Of a DNA stretch of 64,000 bases, positions 2,767-19,098 are shown piece after piece; the first letter of the stretch is position 1, and every line of letters begins with the position of its first letter. Under the pieces are notes generated by a model. That model saw only the letters and a list, made by a program, of their open reading frames with translations. It did not search any database and had not been told where the DNA came from. The stretch is from assembly GCF_054482525.1 (NCBI RefSeq), contig NZ_CM137006.1. One strand, given 5' to 3'. The position numbers were made by a program, and so were the translations under genes.

Positions 2767-4905
2767 ATGACACCGCATGTGATGAAACGAGACGGCTGCA
2801 AAGTGCCGTTTAAATCAGAGCGCATCAAAGAAGCGATTCTGCGTGCAGCTAAAGCAGCGGAAGTCGATGATGCCGATTATTGCGCCACTGTTGCTGCGGT
2901 TGTCAGCGAGCAGATGCAGGGCCGCAACCAGGTGGATATCAATGAGATCCAGACCGCAGTTGAAAACCAGCTGATGTCGGGTCCATACAAACAACTGGCT
3001 CGTGCTTACATCGAGTACCGTCACGATCGCGACATTGAACGTGAAAAACGCGGTCGCCTGAACCAGGAGATCCGTGGTCTGGTCGAGCAGACCAACTCCT
3101 CGTTACTCAACGAAAACGCCAACAAAGACAGCAAGGTGATTCCAACCCAGCGCGATCTGCTGGCCGGGATCGTGGCTAAACACTATGCACGCCAGCACCT
3201 GCTGCCGCGTGACGTGGTGCAGGCACATGAACGTGGTGATATTCACTATCACGATCTCGATTACTCGCCGTTCTTCCCGATGTTCAACTGCATGTTGATC
3301 GACCTGAAAGGCATGCTGACCCAGGGCTTTAAAATGGGGAACGCCGAGATTGAACCGCCGAAGTCGATCTCTACGGCAACCGCTGTAACTGCGCAGATTA
3401 TTGCTCAGGTCGCCAGCCATATTTATGGCGGCACCACCATTAACCGTATCGATGAAGTGCTGGCACCGTTTGTCACCGCCAGCTACAACAAACATCGCAA
3501 GACCGCAGAAGAGTGGAACATCCCGGACGCCGAAGGCTACGCTAACTCTCGTACCATCAAAGAGTGCTACGATGCCTTCCAGTCGCTGGAGTACGAAGTA
3601 AACACCCTGCACACCGCCAACGGTCAAACACCGTTTGTGACCTTTGGTTTTGGTCTGGGCACCAGCTGGGAATCGCGCCTGATTCAGGAATCTATCCTGC
3701 GTAATCGTATCGCAGGCCTCGGTAAAAACCGTAAAACTGCGGTGTTCCCGAAACTGGTGTTTGCGATTCGCGATGGCCTGAACCATAAAAAAGGCGATCC
3801 GAACTACGACATCAAACAGCTGGCGCTGGAGTGCGCAAGCAAGCGCATGTATCCGGATATCCTGAACTACGATCAGGTAGTGAAAGTCACCGGTTCGTTT
3901 AAAACCCCGATGGGCTGCCGCAGCTTCCTCGGCGTGTGGGAAAATGAAAACGGCGAGCAGATCCACGATGGTCGTAACAACCTCGGCGTGATCAGCCTGA
4001 ACCTGCCGCGTATTGCTCTGGAGGCAAAAGGCGATGAAGCCACCTTCTGGAAGCTGCTGGATGAACGTCTGGTGCTGGCACGTAAGGCGCTGATGACCCG
4101 TATCGCTCGTCTCGAAGGCGTGAAAGCGCGCGTGGCCCCGATCCTCTATATGGAAGGTGCTTGTGGCGTGCGTCTCAATGCTGACGATGATGTTTCTGAA
4201 ATCTTCAAAAACGGTCGTGCGTCTATTTCGCTGGGTTACATCGGCATCCACGAAACCATTAACGCGCTGTTCGGCGGCGAGCATGTTTACGACAACGAGC
4301 AGCTTCGCGCGAAAGGTATCGCGATTGTTGAACGTCTGCGTCAGGCGGTGGATCAGTGGAAAGAAGAAACGGGTTATGGTTTCAGTCTCTACAGCACGCC
4401 AAGTGAAAACCTGTGCGACCGCTTCTGCCGTCTCGATACCGCTGAGTTTGGCGTGGTGCCGGGCGTGACCGATAAAGGTTACTACACCAACAGTTTCCAC
4501 CTTGATGTGGAGAAAAAGGTGAACCCGTATGACAAGATCGACTTTGAAGCGCCTTACCCGCCGCTGGCGAACGGTGGTTTCATTTGCTACGGCGAGTATC
4601 CAAACATTCAGCACAACCTGAAGGCGCTGGAAGATGTCTGGGATTACAGCTATCAGCATGTACCGTATTACGGCACCAATACGCCGATCGATGAGTGCTA
4701 CGAGTGTGGCTTTACCGGTGAGTTCGAGTGCACTAGTAAAGGCTTCACTTGCCCGAAATGTGGTAACCATGACGCCTCCCGTGTGTCGGTGACTCGCCGC
4801 GTGTGCGGATATTTAGGTAGCCCGGATGCACGTCCGTTTAACGCTGGTAAGCAGGAAGAAGTTAAGCGCCGCGTTAAACATTTGGGAAATGGGCAGATCG
4901 GTTAA
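2767..4905 (+). CDS. nrdD: anaerobic ribonucleoside-triphosphate reductase (glycyl radical enzyme)
   Basis: 712 aa; C-terminal RVCGYLG glycyl-radical motif and Cys-rich Zn site; recognised as NrdD. Confidence 0.95.
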   Translation: MTPHVMKRDGCKVPFKSERIKEAILRAAKAAEVDDADYCATVAAVVSEQMQGRNQVDINEIQTAVENQLMSGPYKQLARAYIEYRHDRDIEREKRGRLNQEIRGLVEQTNSSLLNENANKDSKVIPTQRDLLAGIVAKHYARQHLLPRDVVQAHERGDIHYHDLDYSPFFPMFNCMLIDLKGMLTQGFKMGNAEIEPPKSISTATAVTAQIIAQVASHIYGGTTINRIDEVLAPFVTASYNKHRKTAEEWNIPDAEGYANSRTIKECYDAFQSLEYEVNTLHTANGQTPFVTFGFGLGTSWESRLIQESILRNRIAGLGKNRKTAVFPKLVFAIRDGLNHKKGDPNYDIKQLALECASKRMYPDILNYDQVVKVTGSFKTPMGCRSFLGVWENENGEQIHDGRNNLGVISLNLPRIALEAKGDEATFWKLLDERLVLARKALMTRIARLEGVKARVAPILYMEGACGVRLNADDDVSEIFKNGRASISLGYIGIHETINALFGGEHVYDNEQLRAKGIAIVERLRQAVDQWKEETGYGFSLYSTPSENLCDRFCRLDTAEFGVVPGVTDKGYYTNSFHLDVEKKVNPYDKIDFEAPYPPLANGGFICYGEYPNIQHNLKALEDVWDYSYQHVPYYGTNTPIDECYECGFTGEFECTSKGFTCPKCGNHDASRVSVTRRVCGYLGSPDARPFNAGKQEEVKRRVKHLGNGQIG

Positions 4906-4917
4906 TCTTCACTCTGC

Positions 4918-5050
<133 letters not shown>

Positions 5051-5062
5051 CCAGGCGAAATA

Positions 5063-5527
5063 ATGAATTATCATCAGTACTATCCTGTCGACATCGTCAA
5101 CGGCCCCGGCACTCGCTGCACCCTGTTTGTCTCCGGGTGTGTTCATGAATGCCCCGGTTGCTATAACAAAAGCACCTGGCGGGTAAATTCCGGTCAGCCA
5201 TTTACCAAAGCAATGGAAGACCAGATCATTAACGATCTGAATGACACTCGCATCAAACGCCAGGGGATTTCCCTCTCCGGCGGCGATCCGCTGCATCCGC
5301 AAAACGTGCCGGATATTCTGAAACTGGTACAACGCATCCGCGCCGAATGTCCGGGTAAAGACATTTGGGTGTGGACAGGCTATAAACTCGACGAACTCAA
5401 CGCTGCGCAAATGCAGGTTGTTGATTTGATTAACGTACTGGTCGACGGCAAATTTGTGCAGGATTTAAAAGACCCTTCCCTGATCTGGCGCGGCAGCAGC
5501 AATCAGGTGGTGCATCATTTGCGTTAG
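5063..5527 (+). CDS. nrdG: anaerobic ribonucleotide reductase activating protein (radical SAM)
   Basis: 154 aa; CVHECPGC radical-SAM cysteine motif near N-terminus. Confidence 0.95.
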   Translation: MNYHQYYPVDIVNGPGTRCTLFVSGCVHECPGCYNKSTWRVNSGQPFTKAMEDQIINDLNDTRIKRQGISLSGGDPLHPQNVPDILKLVQRIRAECPGKDIWVWTGYKLDELNAAQMQVVDLINVLVDGKFVQDLKDPSLIWRGSSNQVVHHLR

Positions 5528-5818
5528 TCACTCATCCAGCCGTTTAGTCGCGTCTTCATAAACGGCTGAGTTCTCTCTCTTACCAATAGCTATCACCAAC
5601 ACGAGCAACTCTTTATCGTTAACCTGATAAACCAGGCGATATCCCTGTGTGCGCAGCTTAATTTTGTAGCAGTCCGGTAAATCCCGCAGTTTAGCCGATG
5701 GATTGCGCGGCCTTTTCAGCACATCCTCAAGCTTTTTTTTAAATTGTTCCCGGACTGTCACGCCCAGTTTTTGCCACTCTTTCAGCGCCCGCGGATCAAA
5801 CGCCAGCTCATAGTTCAT
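5528..5818 (-). CDS. RelE/ParE-family type II toxin (mRNA interferase-like)
   Basis: About 97 aa from ATG at 5816-5818 (ORF-track frame extends further upstream); RelE-like sequence; start overlaps stop of upstream antitoxin gene. Confidence 0.72.
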   Translation of the reverse strand: MNYELAFDPRALKEWQKLGVTVREQFKKKLEDVLKRPRNPSAKLRDLPDCYKIKLRTQGYRLVYQVNDKELLVLVIAIGKRENSAVYEDATKRLDE

Positions 5819-6050
5819 CCAGTCGGACCTTAATGGCCTCTTGTGGGTTGGCCAGTCGTTCCCTGACAGTGCGTAACAAGGCTTCTTCACTATCACTGAC
5901 AGTGAGCGTTTTTACCGGCATTCGTCCATTTTCCGCAACGTACTGAAACAGCAGTCGCACTGCTTCAGTAGGCGTGATATTTAATTTTTCCAGCACCGCA
6001 TAAGCCTCATTTTTCAGTTTGTCATCCAGGCGGACGTTAAGTGTGGCCAT
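5808..6050 (-). CDS. RelB/DinJ-family antitoxin
   Basis: 80 aa; N-terminal MATLNVRLDDKLK resembles ribbon-helix-helix antitoxins; GGAGG Shine-Dalgarno 5 bp upstream; 11-bp overlap with toxin gene. Confidence 0.7.
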   Translation of the reverse strand: MATLNVRLDDKLKNEAYAVLEKLNITPTEAVRLLFQYVAENGRMPVKTLTVSDSEEALLRTVRERLANPQEAIKVRLDEL

Positions 6051-6074
6051 TATGCCTCCGGTAATTATGAAAAG

Positions 6075-6110
6075 TGTAATGCATTATAGCATTACATATG
6101 CATTACATTC
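6075..6110. promoter_or_regulatory. putative toxin-antitoxin operator: palindrome TAATGCATTA plus three GCATTA(C) repeats
   Basis: Read directly from sequence 25-60 bp upstream of antitoxin start codon. Confidence 0.4.
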
Positions 6111-6241
6111 ATTTCTGGAAAACGCCTCGCAAAAATGAGGACGACACGCAGGAATATGCCGTGGTGAAGATAGATATTGCGGTGATTTTACGAAGGGAGA
6201 AGAAAGCGTTGGGCGGTAACGTTTCACCGCCCAATAAGGAA

Positions 6242-6631
<390 letters not shown>

Positions 6632-6810
6632 TCACTTCCTTTTTTATTTACACTTCATCCTTCACACTGCCTCATCGACGGCTACGCTCATTCGCCCGAG
6701 TCACGTACTGCGAGTACGCTCCCCGGCCCTCATTCACTTTCCGTCTCGATGCAGTGCGAATGATTTTGTGTAATTTTTTAGTTTATAGCGCGGCAGGTCG
6801 CGCCAGTTTT

Positions 6811-8835: not shown

Positions 8836-9630
<795 letters not shown>

Positions 9631-9734
9631 ATCAGCATACTTGTCCTTAGCCTTCTGCAGTGACAGCTGGTAGTACAGCGTGCTTCTGGCCAGCCCTGCA
9701 GCCTTTAACAGGTCAGACTGGCAGTGTCCGCACC

Positions 9735-10265
9735 TCAGGCTCCGGATGACTTTCGTTTTTTCTCCAGCTCCTGGCGCTTTTTTTCCAGGAGATGCTCCTG
9801 CATGGCTTTCAGATATGCATTTTCTGCGCGAAGATAACGCAGCTCATTCTTCATCTCTTCCGGCGTCATGTTTGCCTCGTTTTCATGGGTATCATCAGAA
9901 CGGGTCATGCTTTTCTCCTTCCTGCGCCTGATAAAGGCCTCATTACCAGATTTGCGGTAGCCTTTTATCCAGTTTTTAACCGTGTTGTGGCTGGGAATGT
10001 TAAACCGGGCAGCTACCCGGGGTAGAGACTCAGAATGCCCGAGAGCATAAAGAACCACGCAAAGTTTATCTTCAGGAGAATAGCTACGCTTGTGTCTGCA
10101 ATCCAGTGCCCGAGGACCGTGAAGAAGAAAAAGATTAATCCAGTGTGAGAGGCTGGTGTGAGAAAGTTGAAAGAGTTTTGCCGTAGAAATGATGCCTGCA
10201 TGACCAGCCAGGTAGTGATTTACAGCGGCAAGTTTTACTTCAAATGAATGTTTCATAAACTGCAC
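9735..10265 (-). CDS. IS3-family transposase OrfA (HTH plus leucine zipper)
   Basis: 176 aa; helix-turn-helix N-terminus and C-terminal heptad-repeat region. Confidence 0.8.
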   Translation of the reverse strand: MQFMKHSFEVKLAAVNHYLAGHAGIISTAKLFQLSHTSLSHWINLFLLHGPRALDCRHKRSYSPEDKLCVVLYALGHSESLPRVAARFNIPSHNTVKNWIKGYRKSGNEAFIRRRKEKSMTRSDDTHENEANMTPEEMKNELRYLRAENAYLKAMQEHLLEKKRQELEKKRKSSGA

Positions 10266-18502: not shown

Positions 18503-18853
18503 TTATTCCACCACCGCCTGCAAACGTAATAACGCCTCTTCCACCACCTCACCCGCAGCCAGACCAATACGCTTTGCCAGCCGGGCGCGTAGATCCATCA
18601 TCCGCACCTGATTCACCAGCACCACGCCGTGCACATCGCCTTCTTCGCAATGTAAAGGAACGCTAAATCCGGCATAACGGGCAAAATTTCCGCCCTGCGT
18701 AATGGGGGCCACCAGCGTCATTCCCAGTTGATTAAAGGCTTGAACGGAGAGCACAAGCGCAGGTCGACCAGCACCTTGCTGTTCATGGCCGCTTGCTGGA
18801 TCAAAGCCAACCAGCACAATGTCTCCCCGTTCAAATTCACTTTTCTTTACCAT
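18503..18853 (-). CDS. chpB: ChpB (ChpBK) MazF-family endoribonuclease toxin
   Basis: 116 aa; PemK/MazF fold sequence. Confidence 0.9.
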   Translation of the reverse strand: MVKKSEFERGDIVLVGFDPASGHEQQGAGRPALVLSVQAFNQLGMTLVAPITQGGNFARYAGFSVPLHCEEGDVHGVVLVNQVRMMDLRARLAKRIGLAAGEVVEEALLRLQAVVE

Positions 18854-19098
18854 ATTTCGTCACCCGCAGGGGTGGATTTACCCCAGACATCCTGCTCGCT
18901 AAGTTCCGTGGCGTTCATGTCACACTGTGCCAGCAGTTCATCAAGCGAGTAGCGCCTGGAGATGGGTGTCAGAATCAGTTGATTGTTGCTCACTTGCGCC
19001 TCCACGCTCTGCCCCGGCCGTAAGTTAAGTTCTTTCATCACAACATTAGGAATGACCATACCTGAACTGTTCCCCCATCTTTTTATGGTAATACGCAT
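18847..19098 (-). CDS. chpS: ChpS (ChpBI) antitoxin
   Basis: 83 aa from second Met; AbrB/MazE-like. Confidence 0.9.
   Translation of the reverse strand: MRITIKRWGNSSGMVIPNVVMKELNLRPGQSVEAQVSNNQLILTPISRRYSLDELLAQCDMNATELSEQDVWGKSTPAGDEIW

Follow-up and report, generated by a model that had tools for sequence, protein, structure and literature searches.

The stretch analysed here (the window: 64,000 nucleotides of contig NZ_CM137006.1, NCBI RefSeq assembly GCF_054482525.1) carries, between nrdG and cybC of an Escherichia coli chromosome, two small minus-strand genes, relB and relE. We consider it very probable that these form a canonical type II toxin-antitoxin (TA) module of the RelBE family, the apparent E. 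coli counterpart of the Salmonella relBE pair STM4449-4450, and that the module is ancestral at its place beside the nrdDG operon. Positions 4900-6700 (1801 bases compared) are 100% identical to the chromosome of E. coli PCN033, which we take to belong to phylogroup D (as we take SMS-3-5 to belong to phylogroup F). The genes concerned are the following.

5063..5527, plus strand: nrdG, the convergent neighbour of relE
5528..5818, minus strand: relE, encoding a RelE-family mRNA interferase toxin of 96 amino acids (aa), ATG start, RefSeq WP_001105433.1
5808..6050, minus strand: relB, encoding a ribbon-helix-helix (RHH) antitoxin and predicted autorepressor of 80 aa, ATG start, RefSeq WP_000212715.1
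6055..6059, minus strand: GGAGG, the Shine-Dalgarno sequence of relB

The layout is that of a type II TA operon: the antitoxin gene directly precedes the toxin gene, both lie on one strand, and the open reading frames (ORFs) overlap. A sequence-only reading of the window had already proposed a RelB/RelE-type pair in this order, and the ORF coordinates bear it out, the listing and its translation placing an overlap of 11 nt at 5808-5818; the same 11-nt overlap is common to every orthologue examined. The mechanical ORF of relE extends to a GTG at 5896, but homology starts only at the ATG at 5818. At its other end relE meets nrdG with a spacer of 0 nt, the nrdG stop codon TAG (5525-5527) directly abutting the relE stop codon TGA (TCA on the plus strand, 5528-5530), again as had been read. 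The good Shine-Dalgarno sequences claimed for both genes hold for relB, whose GGAGG stands 4 nt before the ATG and is kept in all aligned orthologues, but not for relE, whose sole candidate is a weak AAGG lying ~9 nt upstream, within relB; relE translation is therefore probably coupled to that of relB.

The homology search that had been proposed for both proteins placed each in its expected family. RelE is 65% identical to K-12 RelE over the full length with no gaps, aligns ungapped over residues 1-94 with RelE entries of the PDB (4v7k, E = 2e-35; 4fxe, E = 1e-34), matches Pfam PF05016 (ParE_toxin, E = 7.6e-15) and PF15781 (E = 2e-8), and scores 29.9 bits against the RelE_StbE subfamily model TIGR02385 (cut-off 27.9). 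RelB scores 130.1 bits against the NCBIfam equivalog NF008412 (cut-off 96) and 73.8 bits against TIGR02384 (cut-off 45.65), matches Pfam RelB PF04221 (E = 6.5e-16), and shares 48% identity with K-12 RelB over its whole length; its full-length alignment to 4fxe_A (E = 1e-20) takes in the C-terminal toxin-binding tail, ending in RLDEL, and the N-terminal RHH domain is also present. With such matches to solved structures (2e-35 for RelE, 1e-20 for RelB) and to the Pfam and NCBIfam models, the two ORFs are, as judged by homology, not chance ORFs. RefSeq names both relB and relE already, and the exact protein sequences occur under those names on at least 1000 public contigs. The PADLOC defence-system models gave no assignment, RelE being only marginal to a CARF_RelE fusion model (E = 0.0027) and RelB without a match.

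Residues K52, K54, R61, R81 and Y87 all align with K-12 RelE and are invariant across 11 nrdG-linked orthologues, so that the loss of RelE catalytic residues, which might have told against a toxin, is not found. We take these five to be the catalytic and ribosome-contact set of E. coli RelE, as defined by RelE-ribosome structures. The RelE of the window is predicted to be a ribosome-dependent A-site mRNA interferase that would arrest growth. An R81A change has been used as a non-toxic RelE allele (PMC2812701).

The sequence-only reading had the pair wedged between nrdG and cybC, and this part of it fails. In a cross-genus scan that took a single genome from each species, supplemented by look-ups of plasmids and contigs, we found relB-relE and nrdG-nrdD tail to tail in Citrobacter amalonaticus, four Enterobacter species or metagenome-assembled genomes, three Kosakonia species, Klebsiella pneumoniae and Salmonella enterica, and remnants at the same site in E. 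albertii; the arrangement is thus not an insertion. The antitoxin cluster also has members assigned to E. marmotae and E. fergusonii. The distance between the relE and nrdG stop codons is 0-9 nt across six genera and 3-9 nt in most of the taxa other than E. coli. In Enterobacter sp. Bisph1 (L031, 2501-2854) relE has no stop at its usual place and runs on for 23 extra codons antisense to nrdG, giving a 117-aa product.

Across the nrdG-linked taxa RelB is 80-91% identical, RelE 61-74% and NrdG 88-94%. The mean ratio of the proportions of nonsynonymous and synonymous differences (pN/pS) is 0.17 (relB), 0.25 (relE) and 0.11 (nrdG). In all three genes synonymous sites are close to saturated, and divergence tracks that of nrdG (Spearman 0.58 for relB and 0.47 for relE). 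By this measure both relB and relE are under purifying selection across genera. Within the set L010-L031 and L089-L093 RelB is more conserved than RelE, its nonsynonymous divergence (dN) being about half; this is the reverse of the usual pattern of type II modules. Given the tail-to-tail synteny across genera and the purifying selection, the simplest reading is therefore that relBE is ancestral at nrdDG, has descended vertically, and has disappeared from most E. coli. Erwinia amylovora (L094/L095) has a close relBE homologue that shares the operator palindrome; it is not beside nrdG and lies in an island with SymE-toxin, WHH/colicin-DNase and SUKH immunity genes.

The spread of the pair within E. 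coli was followed in 5426 complete genomes, the presence/absence survey of the nrdG-cybC spacer that had been suggested. Querying with the 714-nt spacer, we found some part of the module in 454 genomes at 456 places, all chromosomal and always between nrdG and cybC; a relE-internal segment was found in 393. The difference between the two counts gives about 61 genomes that keep relB without relE, a subtraction we preferred because junction-specific BLAST was confounded by the joining of separate pieces. The pair was called accessory in the earlier reading, and as a statement of presence and absence in E. coli this stands (relE in 393 of 5426); as a description of an inserted cassette it does not, since the same arrangement occurs in five other genera.

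The relB-only alleles trace to a pair of direct repeats.

5532..5539, no strand: TCATCCAG, left copy of an 8-nt direct repeat, at the junction of the relB-only alleles
5815..5822, no strand: TCATCCAG, right copy, its partner in the toxin deletion

In the alleles L004 (O145 strain RM9872), L005 and L007, relE has been removed exactly between the two TCATCCAG copies, with 283 nt deleted. The product is a 79-aa RelB that ends in RLDE and uses the former relE stop codon, still abutting nrdG, with the promoter retained. The base right after the junction differs between L004 and L005/L007, which may reflect separate deletions or a point change acquired afterwards; L007 has in addition lost one 11-nt operator repeat. 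Other alleles are decayed in other ways. L006 has a frameshift in relE and has lost most of relB together with the promoter; like L006, the remnant at the same site in E. albertii (L020) has a frameshifted relE and a deleted relB; and strain E69 has a relE truncated to 86 aa. The pair has been lost repeatedly.

The pair had been supposed to be missing from K-12, and it is: the nrdG-cybC spacer there is 44 nt and contains no such genes. This K-12-type spacer (L002/L003, 2129-2172) has its own hairpin, TTCCCTGTT...AACAGGGAA, and no detectable homology was found between it and either the relBE-bearing allele or the Salmonella region. Its left junction falls inside the final codon of nrdG, the window reading CGT TAG and K-12 CGA TGA, so that the third base of that codon and the nrdG stop belong to the segment that differs. 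The 'empty' K-12 allele is thus best described as a replacement and not a clean excision.

Upstream of relB lie the elements from which the operon would be expressed and controlled.

6083..6091, minus strand: extended -10 element TGCTATAAT, putative relBE promoter, read from the sequence
6075-6082 (plus strand), 6089-6096 (minus strand) and 6100-6107 (minus strand): three operator-like repeats TGTAATGC, surrounding the -10 element
6209..6234, minus strand: cybC terminator hairpin from a terminator scan, an 11-pair stem followed by a CGCTTTCTTC tail

The -10 element is conserved across genera as TGCTATAAT, TGCTATATT or TGCTAAACT. A canonical sigma-70 promoter scan of positions 5400-6700 (simple -35/-10) found none, so the relBE promoter is a putative one, placed from the conserved TGnTATAAT element. 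TGTAATGC has seven matches in the window against 2.6 expected, three of them inside 33 nt, and the block is kept in genera from Escherichia to Kosakonia and Salmonella, as well as in the unlinked Erwinia homologue. The repeats have a TGTAA core in common with the relO hexad of K-12, which is [A/T]TGT[A/C]A (PMC2812701), and are candidates for the autoregulatory operator of relBE. The cybC terminator hairpin is strong and insulates the relBE promoter from cybC transcription.

A hairpin lies in the 3' end of relE, at the convergent junction.

5537..5582, plus strand: hairpin and tail AGUUCUCUCUCUU, probable nrdDG intrinsic terminator, arms 5537-5546 and 5559-5568, within the relE 3' coding region

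A perfect 10-bp stem starts 10 nt (range 9-12 nt) past the nrdG stop codon on the nrdG-sense strand. Hairpin and tail thus lie on the strand opposite the last ~18 relE codons, 10-55 nt inside relE, and the tail AGUUCUCUCUCUU is the antisense of the relE codons for GKREN, R81 included. The fold has a z-score of -3.0 against shuffled sequences, and an equivalent hairpin with a U-rich tail occurs in every nrdG-linked orthologue, the weakest being that of K. cowanii. The mean minimum free energy is -15.4 kcal/mol in 11 linked genes against -9.1 (standard deviation 3.8) in 71 unlinked relE homologues, and the hairpin is missing from K-12 relE and from the unlinked Erwinia amylovora homologue. When 12 sequences were aligned in codon register, 78% of cells paired; sliding the partner columns lowered this to 26-58%. 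Both sides have changed in four pairs, as where U-A becomes C-G, with AAA to AAG matching a Val-to-Ala change; in 500 shuffles the count of doubly changed cells never rose to the observed one. The rare codon CGG for Arg93 is found in 12 of 13 linked genes but in only 14 of 65 unlinked ones (Fisher p = 2e-6), despite saturated synonymous divergence. No Rfam family matched inside the module.

On this comparative evidence the hairpin is a conserved and selected structure. That it is the intrinsic terminator of nrdDG, embedded in the relE coding sequence, seems to us somewhat better than an even bet; in E. coli the terminator looks weak. The sequence-only reading had nrdDG transcription running antisense into the toxin gene, which follows from the geometry, but the extent of this is probably curbed by the hairpin 10-55 nt inside relE. 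We speculate that the nrdDG transcript would overlap the last ~55 nt of relE antisense, and would reach further where termination leaks. On the minus strand, terminator scans found no terminator-like site for relBE downstream of relE, inside nrdG, so that derepressed relBE transcription may, speculatively, run antisense into nrdG.

The evidence so far consists of homology, catalytic residues, synteny, purifying selection, and conservation of operator and hairpin, and from it we infer toxicity in the window's strain, binding to DNA, dependence on Lon and activity of the terminator. On the model of the homologous K-12 RelBE, relB and relE would be co-transcribed from the extended -10 promoter within the three TGTAATGC repeats. 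RelB dimers would bind these repeats through the N-terminal RHH domain, and RelE would tighten the binding, so that the operon represses itself, while the RelB C-terminus would wrap RelE and block it. Degradation of the labile RelB (by Lon in K-12) would leave free RelE to enter the ribosomal A site, where it would cleave mRNA with K52, K54, R61, R81 and Y87, and translation and growth would stop. Neutralisation of RelE by RelB and the Lon lability are taken from work on K-12 RelB (PMC2812701). The pair would have stood tail-to-tail with nrdDG since before the split of Escherichia, Salmonella, Citrobacter, Enterobacter, Klebsiella and Kosakonia, and most E. coli would since have replaced or eroded it.

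More tentatively, the relE 3' end may do double duty as the nrdDG terminator, with ~55 nt of antisense covering the R81 and Y87 codons. Such a double use may explain the fixed linkage, and it could couple anaerobic, FNR-driven nrdDG transcription to the toxin by interference or antisense pairing, and derepressed relBE to nrdG. We hold this to be possible, though well short of likely.

Other accounts of the pair differ in what they make of these data. The best Pfam match of the toxin carries the name ParE_toxin (PF05016, 7.6e-15; PF15781 follows at 2e-8), which could suggest a ParE-type gyrase poison instead of an mRNA interferase; however, PF05016 spans the entire RelE/ParE superfamily, the toxin is 65% identical to K-12 RelE, keeps the RelE catalytic set and scores above the TIGR02385 cut-off, and its partner is a RelB equivalog and not ParD. 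The chance of a ParE identity is negligible, and we regard it as ruled out by sequence. An inactive relic, with ORFs intact by chance or recently disabled and the toxin activity gone, might be expected from the decaying alleles of Escherichia (L006, E. albertii L020, the 86-aa relE of E69, the ~61 relE deletions), but the window has both ORFs at full length, no catalytic residue is missing, purifying selection acts on both genes across genera, promoter, operator and Shine-Dalgarno sequence are all undamaged as well as conserved, and the exact protein sequence is found on at least 1000 contigs; we judge a relic improbable. More improbable still is a recently acquired mobile cassette, inserted between nrdG and cybC in the lineage of the window. 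Absence from K-12 and from ~92% of complete E. coli genomes would fit such a cassette, as would the abundance of relBE homologues on conjugative plasmids (1140 plasmid records at 60-80% nucleotide identity). Yet the same arrangement recurs in six genera, with relE 0-9 nt from the nrdG stop and relB 80-91% identical, the divergence of relB and relE follows that of nrdG (Spearman 0.58 and 0.47), the 456 E. coli places include no plasmid, and the decayed E. albertii remnant occupies the same site. A search of the junctions for signatures of insertion (target-site duplications, flanking inverted repeats, an insertion sequence (IS) element, an integrase) found none. The cassette is thus largely refuted, in favour of vertical descent.

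For the hairpin the alternative is that it acts in the relBE mRNA, stabilising its 3' end or modulating translation, and does not terminate nrdDG. The stem forms nearly equally well on both strands, and with no terminator-like site for relBE downstream of relE a protective 3' stem-loop could help. However, only copies abutting nrdG have the hairpin, and close homologues away from nrdG, K-12 relE and the Erwinia copy among them, lack it; the U/C-rich tail past the stem is on the nrdG-sense strand only; and on the relE-sense strand the structure stands before the stop codon, which would be odd for a terminator. We find a role in the relBE mRNA unlikely.

Several points nevertheless weigh against our own account of module and hairpin. 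The nrdG-linked genes are one clade, so that the contrasts between linked and unlinked genes are not phylogenetically independent. The strand of the hairpin, sought from G·U asymmetry, came out at 122 against 119 pairs, with no strand indicated. A consensus terminator scan did not call the hairpin in E. coli, where its 12-nt loop and U-poor tail cause a simple scan to miss it. The operator is laid out differently from K-12 relO, which has two adjacent 12-bp palindromes downstream of the -10, whereas here two direct repeats and one inverted repeat stand around the extended -10, and the binding stoichiometry is therefore not simply transferable from K-12. The link to STM4449-4450 is drawn from locus order, primer-encoded N-termini and primer matches, not from the LT2 sequence itself. 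Finally, literature searches, including ones for relBE together with nrdG, found no study of the E. coli copy, its expression or its toxicity.

The best-known relative is the K-12 pair (relB b1564/relE b1563, Qin prophage; PDB 4FXE, 4V7J, 4V7K), which has the same antitoxin-first order, identical catalytic residues, and a RelB with an RHH N-terminus and a toxin-binding C-terminus, the toxins being 65% and the antitoxins 48% identical. It differs in lying in a cryptic prophage, followed by hokD and not beside nrdG, whereas the window pair abuts nrdG; in a relB/relE overlap of 1 nt instead of 11; and in a relE that lacks the 3' hairpin. The RelE_StbE subfamily (TIGR02385) also takes in the plasmid StbDE/RelBE stability modules of Enterobacterales (DNA 60-80% identical in the 1140 plasmid records), but these reside on mobile replicons, whereas the window pair is strictly chromosomal, syntenic across genera, and equipped with the nrdG-tied hairpin.

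The apparent Salmonella counterpart occupies the same locus (pmbA-cybC ... relB-relE tail-to-tail with nrdG-nrdD), its RelE is 72-74% identical to that of the window, its operator is nearly identical, and it has the same relE 3' hairpin. It differs in a 9-nt spacer between the relE and nrdG stops and a RelE of 94 aa (0 nt and 96 aa in E. coli), in extra genes between cybC and relB, and in being widespread in S. enterica (exact protein in 4829 collection blocks), whereas in E. coli the pair is a minority allele. The genes SL1344 4379-4380 / LT2 4449-4450 are given as 'RelBE' in a study in which induction of Salmonella relE arrested growth, co-expression of relB relieved the arrest, and ciprofloxacin tolerance went up (PMC4669091). 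The Salmonella orthologues found here begin with MTYELEFDP and MATLNV, which the cloning primers of that study encode; the primers map with 2-5 mismatches to the gene ends of L090 and L092, loci that are not of serovar Typhimurium. Elsewhere STM4449-4450 is called relBE2ST, with RelE2ST counted among the functional toxins (PMC4366850); PMC3868539 (retracted) and PMC8708949 also give it as relBE, and were used as catalogue entries only. A paper on the E. coli TA pangenome does not single out the nrdG-cybC locus (PMC10790755).

Outside the module, the window has a second type II TA pair, chpS-chpB of the MazEF family (18503-19098, minus strand), ~12.5 kb away between ytfP and ppa in the PGAP annotation of PCN033. 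An IS1397 (IS3-family) transposase with programmed frameshift lies at 8908-10256, between yjgA and mpl. The nrdD-nrdG spacer (4892-5043) gave three overlapping sub-threshold matches to Rfam naRNA4 (RF02564), on both strands, which suggests that it holds palindromic repeats of the repetitive extragenic palindrome (REP) or bacterial interspersed mosaic element (BIME) type.

The TA pair itself is already known: the family is well studied, RefSeq names both genes, and the apparent Salmonella counterpart has been tested. What is new is modest, and limited to the embedded terminator, the natural allele series, and a slow-evolving, sometimes orphaned RelB. The module would nonetheless be a clear case of an ancient, vertically inherited, non-mobile chromosomal TA pair, and a terminator of the neighbouring operon within the toxin gene would be a concrete reason for its long-term linkage to nrdDG. 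If the relE 3' end does double duty in this way, the orphan relB of ~61 E. coli genomes would point to a toxin-independent role, as a regulator or as protection against plasmid-borne RelE. The series of natural E. coli alleles at one locus (intact, relB-only, relE-pseudogene and empty) could be used to probe the role of chromosomal RelBE and of orphan RelB.

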